From: an uncultured Gemmatimonadales bacterium
GTDB taxonomy: Bacteria > Gemmatimonadota > Gemmatimonadetes > Gemmatimonadales > GWC2-71-9
NCBI GenBank assembly: GCA_963730185.1
Contig: CAVSQW010000006.1
Coordinates: 160,001 to 224,000, forward strand
DNA: 64,000 bases
Direction: 5' to 3'
Shown: in pieces, positions 23,701-44,700 of the stretch
How the letters are laid out: every line of letters starts with the position of its first letter
Position numbering within the stretch: the stretch's first letter is position 1
Made by a program: the position numbers

Positions 23701-26700
23701 GCCGAGCGGCGCAAACAAGAGTGCAAACGGGAACCTGAATCCTCGCTTCCCACAGCGGTGTCTCGGGGGCGGCGGTCTCGGCCGCCTGCTCGCCATAATG
23801 GTAGCGGTTCAGGTCGGGCGACTAGGGAGACCCCTCGCCCTCGGCCGGATCTTTTGACAATTGCTTACGGGAAGGTGACGCCTACGAAGGGCGGGAAGGC
23901 TCCCGGAACACCCGTCAGACCCCGGGTGATCGCGACCGACCAGTTCGCTGCTACCAGCGGGCCGACGAGGACACCGAGGAAGGGATCACTGGGGCGGCAG
24001 GCCTCGAACCTGCAACCTCCCGGTTAACAGCCGGTCCGACCGGGCCGGCGAATCCCCGAAGAAATCGGTAAACCATTGATGGCTCTAGCAATCCGCCGAG
24101 GCGGGCCATCGGGGAAATCGGACCAAAACGACTTCAACGGACACACCAACGGACACACCCCGATGGCCGTGGTTCGTTACCCGTTCTCGGCGTCGGTAGC
24201 CGCTGCTCGGGGTGATCCTGGATCGAGCTGAGGCATCCGCCTTTTCTTGGCTATTCGGCCGCCTCCACCCCTCACTACCTTTGGCCGACGCGACCATCGA
24301 GCCAGCCGTGCCGCCCAAACCGAAGCTCCTGCAGACCCTGCGGTCCAATCTTCGCCTCCGGCATTTCAGCCCTCGGACCGAAGCCACCTACGCGGACTGG
24401 GTTCGCCGTTACGTGCGGTTCCATCGCCTCCGTCATCCCAGCGACATGGGAGAGGAGGAGATCCGGCAATTTCTGATCTACCTCGCCCGGGACCGAAAGC
24501 TCGCGCCGAGCACGCCCAATCAGGCTACGGCGGCGATCGTGTTCCTCTATCGGGAAGTGCTTCGCCGCCCTCCTGGGGACTTCGGCCCGATCCTTCGGCC
24601 TCGAACGCCAGTCCGGATCCCGGTCGTGCTGACCCAGGCCGAGGTGCGCCAAGTCGTTGGGTGTCTCGCCGGTACGCCCCGGTTGATCGCCATGATGCTG
24701 TACGGCAGCGGCCTCCGCTTGGGAGAGTGTCTTGCCCTCCGGATCAAGGACCTCGACCTGGCAAGGGGCGAAATCCGCATCCGTGAGGGGAAAGGGTGCC
24801 AAAGATCGGATCACCGTGCTCCCAGCCCGCCTCCGCGAACCCGTGGCGAGCCAGATGGAGCACGTCCGCCAATTGCACGAGGCAGATCGGGCTCACACGA
24901 TCCCAGCGGGGGCTGGGTCGAGCTGCCCGGTGCGCTCGGCCGGAAGTATCCAAATGCGGGACGAACCCTGCCCTGGCAGTGGCTCTTCCCGGCGACCCGG
25001 AGATACCGGGACGCGATCACCGGCCAGATCCGGCGGCACCATTTCCACGCGACGGCGATGCAGCGGGCTATGGCCACGGCCGTGGCGAAGAGCGGCATCA
25101 CCAAGCGAGCCAGCTGTCACACCCTCCGCCACTCGTTCGCGACCCACCTGCTCGAAACGGGCTCGGACATCCGAACGGTGCAGGAACTGCTGGGGCATCG
25201 AGACGTGTCGACCACAATGCTGTACACCCATGTGCTCAACAAGGGTGGACTGGGCGTGAGGAGCCCGGCGGACCGGGGAGGGTTTGACGACCTTCTGCAG
25301 GGATAGCGGATTAGGCAGCGGGCTGCTAGGGTTTAAGCTGTTGGGCGGCAGGCGGGGGACGGGCCCTTGCAGGCCCAATACCTGTTATGCCGCCGCCGCG
25401 GAGTCGTCTGAATGCGAACCTACGCAAGTATGAGTTCCGCCCTGGCGGACGCGCATGGTCTCTTGTGGGCCGACGTCGCCCTCCTCCACCAGCGTTGGAC
25501 GACCTTCAAACGGCTCTATACTGACCAGCCAACCGTCGACCTGCTGAACTGGGCTGCTGGCGGGTTCTTCCAGCTTCTCCAACGCGTCTTCTTGGACGAT
25601 CTGTTGCTCGGCATCGCTCGGCTGGCTGACCCACCGGAGACGAAACAGCAGACGAATCTCGTCCTACGGAGTCTTCTCGTCCGTCTACCCGACGATCAAT
25701 CGGATTTGTTCGGCGAGTTGTCCGAAAAGATCGAGACCTTCGAGGCCAAGGCCGCGTTTGCGCGCCCCGTGCGCAACAAACGCCTCGCTCATAGGGACGA
25801 AGGCATCGCAAGCGGAGCGAGTGATCGGCTCAACTATCGATACACGAACGAGGACATCGATGGAGCGCTGGGCGCCGCAGCCGACATTCTGAATCACCTA
25901 GACCTGGCGTTCGAGGGCCGGACGACGATGTTTGCGGAGTTCATCCATACCAAGGGCGCCGATGTCCTCCTGCGACGGCTCCAGGCGGCGAAGGATGCGA
26001 ACGACGAGTACTTCCGGGACCTCCGGGCAGAGAGCTAGTCGGGGCGTCGGCATAACAAGATGTTGCAGCGGACCGGCGCCCGGGCTCCGCTTCCCAAGGT
26101 GCGGCCGCGGCTCCATGTTACTTCGAGGCCGCCGCGGCCGCTCGGTTCCGCTGGGCGCCGGCCGCTGAACATCCGACCGTTATACAGCACACACGCTTCT
26201 ACGATTGTGGAGGGTCGTGCTTGCATGGAAATGGCGTATCGAGAGCGGTGGCAGGCGGAGATTGCGGCGATGCGCCGCGTACTTGCCGGCTTTGCCATGA
26301 AGGAGGAGTGTAAGTGGGGGAAGCCCACCTACACCGTGGATACAAAGAACATCGTCATTCTTCAGGGCTTCAAAGAGTATTTTGCGCTGGGCTTCTTTCG
26401 AGGTGCTTTACTGAAGGATCCGAAGAAAGTGCTCGTGCAGCTCGGTCAGACGCATGCCGCGCGCGTGATGAAGTTCACCAGCGCGAAGGAGATCACAGCG
26501 AAGGCGGCGACCATCAAGAGCTACGTGCGCGAGGCCATCGCAGTCGAGAAGACCGGGCTGCGGATGAAGCCGAAGCGGACCTCAGACTATCCGGTTCCCG
26601 ACGAGCTAAGCGAGCGTTTCCGAAGAGACCCGCGTTTCAAGCGCGCCTTCGAGGCGCTGACGCCGGGACGGCAGCGGAGTTATCTGTACCACTTCGCGGG

Positions 26701-41700: not shown

Positions 41701-44700
41701 CTTGGGGTTCGCGGTCTTCCTCGGCACGAGACTGGGCAAGGAAGAACACCCATATCTGCTCCTGCTTCTGAGCCTCTTCATCTTCTCCCCACCCTCTCGG
41801 TTCTCCGTTTTCGTGATGTGGTGGATCGATACGACGTGGGAGCTCGGCACTCATTACAACATCTTCGACAGCTGGGGGCGGGCCCTGTTCTCCCAACTCT
41901 TCTGGGGCTCCGTCATCCAGGTAATCCCCGGCTTCTTGATCGGGTCAGTGGTCCTCCGCATCAAGAGGGCCCGGGCGAGCGCCGCCTGACAGGGCTTATA
42001 GCGAAGGCGGTCGCGGAACTTCGCGCGGCCAGGCAGGAAGCACCCGGGATCGGAGCTGCCTGGCTCTTCCCGGCTCCCAAGGACACGGCGCGACCGATCG
42101 ACCGGTTCCTGGTGCGGGAGTGGTGGAAGCGCCTGGAAGGCGCGGCAGGGCTCGCTCGGATTCCCGGGCGGGGTTGCATGCCCTGAGGCGGCAGTTCGCC
42201 TCAGAGCTCAAGCACGCGCCATCCAGGAGCCTCTGCGAGCTGGGCGGCTGGAGTCGCTGCACACGATCGTCAAATGCTACCAGCGGGCCGACGAGGACAC
42301 CTAGGAAGGAACCACTGGGGCGGCAGGCCTCGAACCTGCAACCTCCCGGTTAACAGCCGGGCGCTCTGCCAATTGAGCTACACCCCATCGCCCGAACGGT
42401 CGCCCGGCGCCCAGCAGAATAGAAAGCCGCCCCCAAACCGTCAACGTCCTCGAGCGCCACGGCGCGGTCAGGATCGGTTGCTGCTCCTTCCCCACCCTTG
42501 ACGATCTTCTCACCTGGCCGATTCCTCGCCGGACGAACCCGGTCAGCCGGGCTGGTCCGAGCCGGGCGGCTCCACCAGAATCTTGGCTGCGGCCGCCGCG
42601 CCGAGGGCAACCTCTCGGCCGTCCCCCACCTGGATCCGAACGGCTTCGGCCGGAGCGTCGCGATCCAGAACCACGACCTCCGCGCCGGGCACCAAGCCGT
42701 GGCACTCCGCGAACCGGAGGAACGATGGAGTCTGATCCAGGATCCGGATCAGCCGCTCCGGCCGGCCCGGCGGACAGTCCGCGAGGCTCATCCGCGCCGG
42801 CTCCTCCAGGTGTCCCTTCGAGCTGGGAATCGGATCGCCGTGAGGGTCGACCGCCGGGTACCCGAGCAGGGCGTCCATCCGTTCGAGGACCCGGTCAGAG
42901 ATTGCGTGCTCCAGCCGGTCGGCCTCCTCGTGCACCTCGGACCAGTCCAGCCCCAGCGCCTTCACGAGGAATAGCTCCACCAGCCGGTGGCGGCGAAGGA
43001 CGTGAAGCGCCAACTGCTCACCCCGGGCGGTCAACCGCGCCCCCTGTCTGGACTCGTACTCCACCAACCCCGAGTCGGCCAGTGCCTTGACCATCGAGGT
43101 CGCCGTGCCGGGCACCACCCCCATCCTCGCAGCCAGTTGACCGGTGGGCATCATGGCACCGTCACTCGCCGACTGAGCGAGATAGAGCTGCTTGAGATAG
43201 TCCTCGACCGTGCTGCTCGGCACGAGACCCCTCCGTTCAAGTGCTCGACACTACCGATCCGAGCGAGACTTGACAACAATTTGAAATATAGCGAAAATGA
43301 TTTTGACTACTCAAAATGGCACAAATGCCTACCCTCGCCCTCCTCCTCGGAACGACCTGGCTCGCGACGGCCCCACAGCCCCCCGATCGCCCCTGCCCTG
43401 GGGGCGGCGCTCGGCCATTGCACGCCGATCGACCGGATGTGACGGAGAGCCCATACACCGTCCCCTCCGGGCGGTGGCAGGTCGAGGTGAGCTTCGTCGA
43501 ATACACGCGTGACGAGGTGGGCAAGGCTCGCTCGACCACCACCTCGGTCCTTCCGGGCGCCATCAAGGTTGGGGTGTCGTGCCGGGCAGACGTTCAGCTC
43601 ATGGTCACCCCCTTCCTGGACCTCCGCCGGGGCGGCTCGCCGGATTCTCGCACGACCGGTCCAGGCGACTTGGTAGGGCGATTCAAGCTCAACTTGGCGG
43701 GGAACGATGACGGGCAGATCGCTTTCGGTGTCATGCCCTTCGTGCGGATTCCCTTGGCGAGGCAAGGGTTGGGGGCCGGCCGCCTGGAGGGCGGCCTGAT
43801 CGTTCCGCTCGCAGCCGGGCTACCCCAGGGGTTCGACCTCGGTGCCATGGTCGAGCTTGATCTCCGGGGATCGGCGTCCGGCACCGGGTATGGGGTCGAG
43901 GCCGTGCATTCGATCACCCTCGGGCACTCATTGGCCGGCGAGCGACTCGGGTCATACCTCGAGTACGCCGGGTCGGCCCCGGTGGGGACTGGTGGCGGGT
44001 ACGAGGCCTACCTCGACGGCGGCTTGACGTTGGCCACGTCCTCCAATCGCCAGCTCGATGCCGGGCTCCGCCTCGGCTTGTCGCCGGCGGCGGACGGGTT
44101 CACCGCCTTCGTCGGCTTCACATTCCGCCGCTGATGTCCGGGCCCGTCTCTCTCGAAGGCATGCACCGCACTGTCGCGGTGCCGGAGCACAGCGGGGCCG
44201 GCTTCTGGCGCCACTGGCGGGCCTACGTCGGGGCCGGCGCTCCTGGTCAGCGTCGGCTACATGGATCCCGGCAACTGGGGGACTGATCTGCAAGGCGGCG
44301 CGCAGTTCAAGTACGGCCTGCTCTGGGTAGTGGCCTCGGCAAGCCTGATGGCGATCTTTCTGCAGGTCCTGTCGGCCCGGCTGGGGGTCGTGACCGGCAA
44401 GGACCTGGCGCAGGCCTGCCGGGATTGGTATCCGCGCTGGACCCGATGGCCAAACTGGCTGTTGTGCGAGGTGGCGATCGGCGCGTGCGACCTGGCCGAG
44501 GTGCTCGGCAGCGCCGTGGCGCTCAACCTGCTGTTTCACATCCCGCTCTTCTGGGCGGTGATGATCACCGCGGCTCGACGTGCTTCGTGTTGTTGGCGTT
44601 GCAGCGATTCGGGATGCGCACGATCGAGGCGGTCATCGTCCTGCTGGTGGCGACGATCGGGGTCTGCTATTTCATCGAGATTTTCGTGCTGCCCCAGACC

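Follow-up and report, generated by a model that had tools for sequence, protein, structure and literature searches.

Integrons whose integrase gene lies on the attC strand, with the array downstream of the 3' end of intI, are already known from Treponema and other chromosomes (PMC4889954, PMC13323075, PMC8352920). The relevant passages of these papers name no Gemmatimonadota, and the phylum is not among the 11 attC taxon models presented in the corresponding part of PMC8352920. Among clinical resistance proteins, GAR and GrdA defeat gentamicin, and GrdA also plazomicin (PMC7085159, PMC12057348, PMC12587605). In an uncultured Gemmatimonadales bacterium, a genome-wide survey's note had described two sedentary chromosomal integrons, one with a Gar/GrdA-family cassette, and had read them as the natural reservoir of clinical gar. 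Our analysis of the 64,000-nt stretch holding the first of them (the window, on contig C6) does not uphold the claim about the origin of gar. We consider it probable that the locus is a co-oriented integron, as is typical of Gemmatimonadota, and forms the cargo of a decayed integrative element that sits at tRNA-Asn. Its Gar/GrdA-family cassette, cassette 13, is in this reading foreign, and neither gar nor grdA derives from it.

The assignment of the host to Gemmatimonadota is supported: part of EF-Tu and L10 were 91% and 62% identical to those of a Gemmatimonadales genome, versus 74-78% and 29-39% in three other phyla, with one of the five genomes compared giving no match; ESM Atlas results carried no useful taxonomic signal. 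At the sequence level, the locus comprises intI, an attI that follows the intI stop codon immediately, 14 attC-bounded cassettes, island ends and an integrase remnant, as follows (window coordinates).

23949-24034, unstranded: left att copy, consisting of the 3' 46 nt of tRNA-Asn plus 40 nt past the tRNA; direct repeat of 42275-42360
24035-24170, unstranded: element-end sequence, putatively an arm
24308-25306, plus: integron integrase gene intI; TIGR02249 361.5 bits (cut-off 265), as the survey had reported, profile positions 1-314 of 315
25307-25390, plus: attI region; probable crossover at G|TT, 25384/25385
25385-26185, plus: cassette 1; HEPN_AbiU2 protein 25412-26038 (PF18734); attC 26050-26185, fold z -6.7
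26186-26953, plus: cassette 2; DUF1801/OmdA protein 26225-26788; attC 26860-26953
26954-29039, plus: cassette 3; SgcJ/DUF4440 protein 26976-27557; IS481 about 27600-28885; attC 28899-29039; 98% copy in the C14 array
29040-30899, plus: cassette 4; RibD_C protein 29077-29640; attC interrupted by IS30 (about 29725-30788)
30900-31578, plus: cassette 5; protein without known function 30962-31435; attC 31442-31578
31579-34773, genes minus, attC plus: cassette 6 (3.1 kb); PadR regulator, two proteins without known function, alpha/beta hydrolase; attC 34656-34773
34774-38165, plus: cassettes 7-11; proteins without known function and an SRPBCC protein 37576-38043; cassette 8 has a 97% copy on C14
35558-35705, 36115-36253, about 36944-37081 (degenerate), 37471-37559 (shortened) and 38052-38165, plus: attC of cassettes 7-11
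38166-39104, minus: IS1111-type element, 939 bp, inserted in the R' box of an attC; NF033542 97.5 bits, below the cut-off of 140
39105-39993, plus: cassette 12; SAM methyltransferase 39121-39882; attC 39877-39993
39994-40685, plus: cassette 13; Gar/GrdA-family P-loop kinase 40064-40576; short attC 40620-40685 with degenerate R''
40686-41426, plus: cassette 14; protein without known function 40710-41372; 60-nt attC 41367-41426
41567-41989, plus: last small gene; the attC finder gave no site after it
41992-42303, plus: C-terminal remnant of a phage-type tyrosine integrase, spread over three frames
42315-42387, minus: tRNA-Asn(GTT), the integration site; right repeat copy 42275-42360

By these features, the integron itself is genuine and gene-capturing: its attC sites have R and L boxes, an unpaired spacer and an extrahelical base, and every oriented attC lies on the plus strand with intI, as the survey had claimed. 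By known integron biochemistry, the bottom strand of attC, once folded, would be recombined with attI by IntI at G|TT, and new cassettes would therefore enter directly behind intI. The attI R box at 25384 is the exact complement of the R'' of cassette 1, and the attI core recurs 3' of intI in the nearest relatives; a loose attI pattern was unspecific when run genome-wide. Of the two elements that the survey had left unlocated, attI is thus found and the Pc promoter is not, a scan restricted to sigma-70 promoters giving no match in 24000-25450; the array yielded no promoter. The closest relatives of IntI (77% and 76% identical) are encoded in same-genus genomes. Its gene reads off-frame for about 40 codons (about 24794-24915), a shift that may have inactivated it but is indistinguishable from an assembly error; EF-Tu, NusG and L11 also read broken, and contig overlaps agree only 95-96%. 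The second intI reported on C13 is present and 55% identical to that of C6.

The array has a G+C content of 64.2% versus 69.5% for the genome, and it contains IS481, IS30 and IS110-family transposases, both in agreement with the survey. The reported hairpin length of 118-145 nt was inaccurate, as the sites measure 60-148 nt. Of the 11 attC sites located by hand, nine have better folds than shuffled sequences (z -2.9 to -7.1), which bears out the hairpins described earlier; the other two do not, among them the attC of cassette 13 (z -0.5), whose R'' matches at 4 of 7 positions. When both end boxes were required strictly, 13 of the 15 matches in the genome (5.27 Mb) fell in arrays and two elsewhere. 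The R' box before a cassette exactly complements the closing R'' in eight of the 14 cassettes, where shuffling gave a mean of 2.0 (1 of 20,000 shuffles). The four genes of cassette 6 run against the array and have a promoter-like site at 34463-34435. PADLOC returned generic methyltransferase and P-loop matches and no whole-protein defence match, and an Rfam search returned the tRNA only.

The IS1111-type element also occurs on C14 as a 1,524-bp copy, inserted at the same point. With this fixed insertion point in attC and its subterminal inverted repeats, it belongs with the IS1111-attC elements. Like ISKpn4 and ISPst6, as partly described in PMC11187229, it has an IS110-family transposase, subterminal inverted repeats, a non-coding region downstream of tnp and a fixed attC insertion point; unlike them, it resides in another host phylum, and its C6 copy is internally deleted.

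The ORF at 40064-40576 is a Gar/GrdA member, as the survey had assigned it (NF038208 277.7 bits, cut-off 170), and its 912 homologues were recovered again, one being a Salmonella protein at 79% identity; none was found in phages. The protein keeps all 46 near-invariant family columns, including the P-loop, and its predicted structure (pLDDT 89.9) best matches gluconate kinases and a tunicamycin resistance protein (TM 0.67-0.71). Like GAR (PMC7085159) and GrdA (PMC12057348, PMC12587605), it exceeds the NF038208 cut-off and has Walker A, DGD at 31-33 and a similar length, and like GAR it is encoded in a cassette. Unlike them, it is 61-64% identical to GrdA and only about half identical to GAR, falls in a clade other than GAR's and has a pI of 6.2 versus 4.7-5.05; its attC is short, decayed and of the 8-nt type, unlike the canonical attC of GAR. 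Judging from family and fold, the kinase, if expressed, would most likely, at roughly even confidence, phosphorylate garosamine-bearing aminoglycosides with ATP. The cassette is probably silent, lying 14.7 kb from attI. Its product belongs to a widespread family of P-loop kinases, as one environmental representative, and the cassette was probably captured as a foreign one.

We regard it as possible, if somewhat doubtful, that Gar-family proteins are kinases for another small molecule, with the aminoglycoside resistance conferred by GAR and GrdA a secondary activity limited to a few alleles. The R' box lies upstream at only two of 23 environmental loci, most of which sit among ordinary genes, and the fold is common to gluconate and nucleoside kinases. 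With a net charge of -3, versus a median of -8 for related proteins, the window protein is also among the least acidic four of 120, which argues against drug binding. However, gentamicin resistance is conferred by both GAR and GrdA (PMC7085159, PMC12057348), which are only 50% alike, and pathogens carry three more alleles, two of which lie in class 1 integrons.

The integron fills an 18.3-kb island between the copies of an 86-nt direct repeat (97% identical, spacing 18,326) that covers the 3' part of the tRNA, with a remnant integrase beside the tRNA. The partial tRNA and putative arm are 88-89% identical over 185-197 nt to element ends in two same-genus genomes (loci L160 and L173), where the cargo is different. 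Homologues of the remnant occur in 16 of 120 family genomes; a tRNA adjoins them at nine of 11 fetched loci and is tRNA-Asn for the closest one. PHROGs gave no match for the remnant, which was identified through these genome homologues instead, and all three full-length homologues scanned belong to PF00589. An unoccupied tRNA-Asn site between the same flanks was sought in relatives, whose flanking genes are not syntenic, and none turned up; hence the repeat, together with the element ends, is our basis for inferring that the island arrived. The flanks of same-genus intI genes map to many different places in this genome, and therefore the genus has no single fixed integron locus. Counting against the island reading, the loci with the nearest integrases (L188 and L189) are not beside a tRNA-Asn arm.

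It is unlikely that the integron is an old resident and that one element after another at a tRNA hotspot left the repeat and remnant behind, although the C6 integrase clusters with same-genus integrases in a quick tree, partial tRNA-Asn copies occur in several genus members, and nine of 37 related intI loci lie near tRNA or tmRNA, some sharing housekeeping flanks. Against this, intI begins about 140 nt inside an element end whose counterparts in two relatives go with other cargo, the attC sites are mixed, and none of 16 same-genus intI flanks examined maps to the C6 place. The description as sedentary suits C13 (three attC, mean identity 0.91) better than C6 (10 attC, 0.50, inside a tRNA island), where the attC are not homogeneous and the locus is not a conserved one outside a mobile element. 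In keeping with sedentary chromosomal integrons, as far as PMC8618304 was drawn upon, the arrays are chromosomal, cassettes mostly lack known function and the C13 attC are uniform; the mixed C6 attC, the island ends and the scattered loci of the genus depart from them.

The survey had the C13 array running on through C16 and C14. This continuity is ruled out by the contig overlaps (the C13 end overlaps neither, whereas C15 overlaps C16 and C16 overlaps C14) and by the C14 array's own attI, beside which no intI was found. Orphan attI platforms are present on C12, C14 and C17, and those on C12 and C17 retain the last codons of intI; the survey had mentioned neither these platforms nor the 86-nt repeat nor the off-frame stretch of intI. 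Like CALINs (PMC4889954), the C14 and C17 arrays have attC and no integrase nearby; unlike CALINs, they keep a recognisable attI, and C17, as well as C12, keeps those codons. The two integrases of the genome may also serve these platforms in trans, which would account for cassettes common to several arrays, such as the two shared by C6 and C14 (98.3% and 96.9% identical).

Because a profile made from the attC of this genome recovered few sites in related genomes, sites were located with a finder based on structure; its initial settings overlooked the 60-nt class 1 attC behind the L001 gene, which it recovered once they were relaxed. In Gemmatimonadota attC, the bottom-strand extrahelical base is cytosine in 184 of 194 sites, versus G in control sites, and the L'-R' spacer is mostly 8 nt versus 6 nt. 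The co-oriented layout occurs in 31 of 37 long Gemmatimonadota loci and the divergent one in none. The locus thus resembles the published inverted-integrase integrons in strand and array position, and differs from those in the cited passages (PMC4889954, PMC13323075, PMC8352920) in the near-universal layout among sampled loci, the C base, the mostly 8-nt spacer and the tRNA island. Since C as extrahelical base was previously known from one cassette only, blaVIM-2 (PMC3053210), VIM relatives were sought in the phylum; none of 401 genomes passed the cut-off, and neither of two weak B1-type matches lies near a detected attC. Among cassette ORFs of relatives (153 extracted, seven from this genome left out), 10 of 146 have any family match, mostly toxin-antitoxin, and none exceeds a resistance-family cut-off; the idea that the phylum's arrays are a general resistance store was rejected.

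Turning to the origin of gar, the 79% identical Salmonella protein is not the published GAR: it has 170 aa versus 167 aa, and 82 of 167 positions are identical to Salmonella GAR (49%). The window protein shares 87 of 167 positions (52%) with GAR, far from near-identity, and ranks 109th among the 120 matches listed for GAR, whose nearest relatives (87, 82, 75 and 75%) are metagenome proteins; GrdA has an 89% relative in Aquipseudomonas. In trees of 170 columns from quick searches, a clade of the window protein and GAR was rejected (AU p 9e-8), with a modest rejection for the whole GAR clade (p 0.029). Counting against our reading, the window protein falls in one clade with three pathogen alleles (SH-aLRT 98), and a sister position to the 79% Salmonella allele was not rejected (p 0.27). 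The attC of GAR and its array in G718 have canonical geometry, with a top-strand C in 12 of 12, which the phylum mostly lacks. Gar-family genes occur in six of 401 phylum genomes, mostly outside cassettes, and in none of six same-genus genomes, while equally close homologues exist in Myxococcota, Gammaproteobacteria and KSB1; one family member (L028/L040) has a divergent intI, which counts against our reading of the layout. A search of 72,556 plasmids with the C13-type attC yielded nothing beyond a 28-nt chance match. In favour of a reservoir are the cassette here and a cassette-like gene in one more family member (L028), integrases over the cut-off in 165 of 401 phylum genomes, and the R' box GTTGGGC, which opens the window cassette as well as a class 1 cassette from Klebsiella. 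That sedentary Gemmatimonadota integrons are the natural reservoir of clinical gar is nevertheless very improbable, and largely refuted for GAR and GrdA. On these comparisons, cassette 13 is only distantly related to gar and gave rise to neither gar nor grdA.

Pathogens carry five distinct Gar-family alleles, 49-69% mutually identical, whose placement in a single clade was rejected (p 3e-5); the family probably reached them several times from different donors. Three of the five are further alleles in Enterobacterales, one on 285 contigs, for which our literature searches found no published tests. With identities below 70% to both named genes, they could escape screens that rely on identity.

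Taken together, we tentatively propose, at slightly less than even confidence, an undescribed Gemmatimonadota integron lineage, with an integrase in about 4 of 10 genomes and its own site grammar (intI co-oriented with the array, attI following the stop codon, C/8-nt attC). Its platform would move on tRNA-targeting elements, with orphan attI served in trans; the grammar may bar entry into class 1 integrons, and Gar/GrdA kinases would have entered pathogens at least five times. The geometry of attC is in use for tracing the origin of clinical cassettes, and a phylum-wide C/8-nt signature would provide a testable marker. With C reported from a single cassette (PMC3053210), the signature would also offer a natural test of integrase-site co-evolution.

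The integron on contig C6 is real, well preserved and of the inverted-integrase type, and it lies in a tRNA island. Integron integrases (IntI) join gene cassettes through recombination sites, attI and attC, whose boxes are named R', R'' and L'. We located 14 cassettes by hand in the C6 array, and its principal features, in window positions, are as follows.

24308-25306: integron integrase gene (intI), TIGR02249 361.5 bits (cut-off 265)
25384: attI, 78 nt 3' of the intI stop, placed by the R'/R'' complement rule
25412-26038: first cassette, encoding a HEPN_AbiU2 protein, a possible anti-phage gene in the place nearest attI (no match in PADLOC)
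31579-34773: unusually long cassette, four genes against the array; a promoter-like site of its own precedes a PadR regulator
38166-39104: IS1111-type element
40064-40576: ORF of cassette 13, Gar/GrdA family, 277.7 bits on the family model (cut-off 170)

The same attI core follows the two closest integrases as well as others. The R' box before a cassette and the R'' box closing it were exact complements in 8 of 14 cassettes (shuffled mean 2.0; one in 20,000 shuffles), which is the trace that the insertion of circular cassettes should leave. Nine of the 11 intact-looking attC sites folded better than dinucleotide shuffles, the site of the gar cassette being among the other two, and a structure-based finder with strict ends placed 13 of its 15 genome-wide sites in arrays. 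A search for a sigma-70 promoter serving the C6 array found none, the single match serving the reversed four-gene cassette. A stretch of about 40 codons in the C6 integrase is off frame; this cannot be read as decay, because EF-Tu, NusG and L11 also read as broken in this assembly and identity within the contig overlaps is just 94.8-96.2%. Judged by how closely its EF-Tu and L10 match those of titled genomes, the host belongs to Gemmatimonadota (matches in four of five genomes).

Two copies of an 86-nt repeat (97% identical; 23949-24034 and 42275-42360) span the 3' 46 nt of tRNA-Asn. The left one and the sequence after it match element ends, which we take to be arm-like repeats, of two genomes from the same genus at 88-89% identity. 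Adjoining the tRNA is what remains of an integrase, its C-terminal part; homologues occur in 16 of the 120 family genomes, a tRNA lies beside the gene in 9 of 11 fetched loci of these homologues, tRNA-Asn in the closest, and all three full-length homologues scanned were PF00589 proteins. The repeat, the element-end matches and the remnant together indicate that the integron fills a decayed element of 18.3 kb. Two observations count against the island: no empty site was found in the relatives searched, and the closest integrases are not located at tRNA-Asn. When the 5' flanks of intI at 16 loci of the genus were mapped to this genome, 12 matches fell at 11 different places, none of them the C6 site, and four flanks matched nothing. 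Mean attC identity was 0.50 in the C6 array (10 sites, mixed) versus 0.91 in that of C13 (three sites, uniform).

Further integrons were seen near tRNA genes. Another family member (L248, G001:C98:1-3427) has, next to tRNA-Lys, an intact integrase belonging to the tRNA-targeting family of the remnant, with intI at a distance of 1.25 kb; the contig stops short of the array. Related integrons occupy shared loci adjoining tRNA-Leu with common flanking genes or tRNA-Met (L079, L085, L095, L096; L071, L076, L093). Partial copies of tRNA-Gln, -Met, -Leu and -Pro at C6 129342-129384, C4 1559-1602 and C8 98184-98587 of this genome may mark other islands, and ARAGORN called two tRNA-SeC genes (C6 340205-340297 and C10 49371-49468). 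In the window, 19735-23304 encodes a 1,190-aa fusion of GH18, polysaccharide deacetylase and GT2 domains, present in none of 18 same-genus genomes and in five of six genomes of another family. The gene at 42546-43223, presumably a DtxR/MntR-type regulator, has a paralogue at C6:157051-157647 (43%) and is single-copy in most relatives.

Contig C13 carries a second integrase, 55% identical to that of C6. An AU test rejects them as sisters (p 5e-5), and the closest integrases to both are from the same genus, at 77% and 73%, respectively. The genome-wide survey's note had the C13 array running on into C16 and C14, but the C13 end overlaps no other contig and the C14 array begins at its own attI of the C13 type. 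Attachment platforms without an integrase were located at four places.

C14 about 2290-2345: attI-like platform
C17 112958-113309: attI-like platform, C6-type, last intI codons kept
C17 116979-117329: attI-like platform, C6-type, last intI codons kept
C12 about 249320-249423: attI-like platform, C6-type, last intI codons kept, followed by a permease-like gene; no attC detected

Two cassettes are common to the C6 and C14 arrays (98.3% and 96.9%), and we infer that cassettes were exchanged between them in trans. The IS1111-type element sits in the R' box at the same point in both arrays (7838-9361 in C14), in keeping with the fixed insertion point described for the IS1111-attC group (PMC11187229). 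A 71% relative of this element occurs in another array locus (L087).

Integrases above the cut-off were identified in 165 of 401 sampled genomes of the phylum, this genome counted, as well as up to three that are flagged as unpublished (G097, G182, G157) and on which no other claim rests. Within the genus, 13 of 22 members had one. We compared 37 long loci (with roughly 8 kb of sequence ahead of intI and 11 kb behind it), a non-random set of high-scoring matches on long contigs among 150 listed. In 31 of them attC sites lay solely downstream on the intI strand, none was divergent, and six had no detected site. A short locus, G090:C122 (L028/L040), has a divergent intI by eye, and its integrase falls outside the main clade. 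Upstream of this intI lies a Gar-family gene and then a 60-nt attC-like site, an exception to the co-orientation in the phylum. Co-oriented integrons are already known (PMC4889954, PMC13323075), and Gemmatimonadota are listed as an integron host in PMC8618304.

Among 194 non-redundant Gemmatimonadota attC sites, the unpaired top-strand base is G in 184, giving a C on the bottom, recombining strand, and the spacer between L' and R' is 8 nt in 133. With the same finder, a Xanthomonadaceae array (G718) gave a top-strand C in 12 of 12 sites and a 6-nt spacer in 11, and class 1 sites gave C and 6 nt in three of three; this one array and the class 1 sites formed the controls. According to PMC3053210, most attC sites have a bottom-strand G, with blaVIM-2 as the only C case. 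We found no prior description of the C/8-nt geometry for this phylum in the openly accessible literature, and the supplements of attC surveys may show it.

The survey's note pointed to a Salmonella protein 79% identical to the window protein (the cassette 13 product). Published GAR has 167 aa, L9 and T75, and 51% identity to WP_135484108.1 (PMC7085159); the 79% protein has 170 aa and is 75% identical to WP_135484108.1, and thus is not GAR. A protein in locus L113 fits the published description, and its sources name it Gar. It matches the window protein at 87 of 167 residues, and Salmonella GAR matches the 79% protein at 82 of 167. The closest relatives of GAR are unnamed proteins at 87, 82, 75 and 75%, the window protein ranking 109th among the 120 listed, and in a 108-row tree GAR has a clade to itself (SH-aLRT 100). 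AU tests on 39 author-chosen rows of this tree plus one rejected the window protein with GAR (9e-8) and with the GAR clade (0.029), and did not reject it with the 79% allele (0.27). The attC of GAR is a canonical 73-nt site, in an array whose integrase is divergent and not of class 1. Of 401 genomes of the phylum, 6 had a Gar-family protein above the cut-off; of six same-genus genomes, none did. On identity, AU tests, attC type and the rarity of the family in the phylum, we reject the origin of clinical gar proposed in that note, the integrons of this lineage.

The window protein is 61-64% identical to GrdA; a protein of Aquipseudomonas guryensis (P0226), 89% identical to GrdA, may point to where grdA came from. 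Minicystis, Natronospirillum and KSB1 have homologues as close as 78-79%. Several of the proteins named here are already among the relatives given in supplement 3 of PMC7085159. An R' box lies upstream in only 2 of 23 titled Gar-family loci. Two loci, L007 (5539-10501) and L009, hold Gar-family cassettes whose identity to the window protein is 79% and whose starting R' box is also that of cassette 13 and of a Klebsiella cassette; in L007, pieces of intI lie upstream on the cassette's strand.

The predicted structure of the window protein (pLDDT 89.9) matches gluconate kinases and a tunicamycin resistance protein (TM 0.67-0.71), all 46 near-invariant columns are kept, and its net charge is -3 versus a median of -8. 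Even for GAR, drug phosphorylation is a proposal (PMC7085159). We put the chances that the protein would be active upon expression at about even. Resistance in situ is improbable, given that this is cassette 13 and that a reversed operon and three IS elements precede it.

Five Gar-family alleles were identified in pathogens.

GAR
GrdA, in an IS256 unit (PMC12587605)
172-aa class 1 cassette, in 2 of 5,426 E. coli genomes; 285 contigs
173-aa class 1 cassette
170-aa Salmonella protein

Our literature search found tests for GAR and GrdA only. The five are 49-69% identical to one another, and the AU test rejects a single clade for them (3e-5). The interest of the finding rests on this repeated recruitment of the Gar/GrdA family, together with the attC signature.
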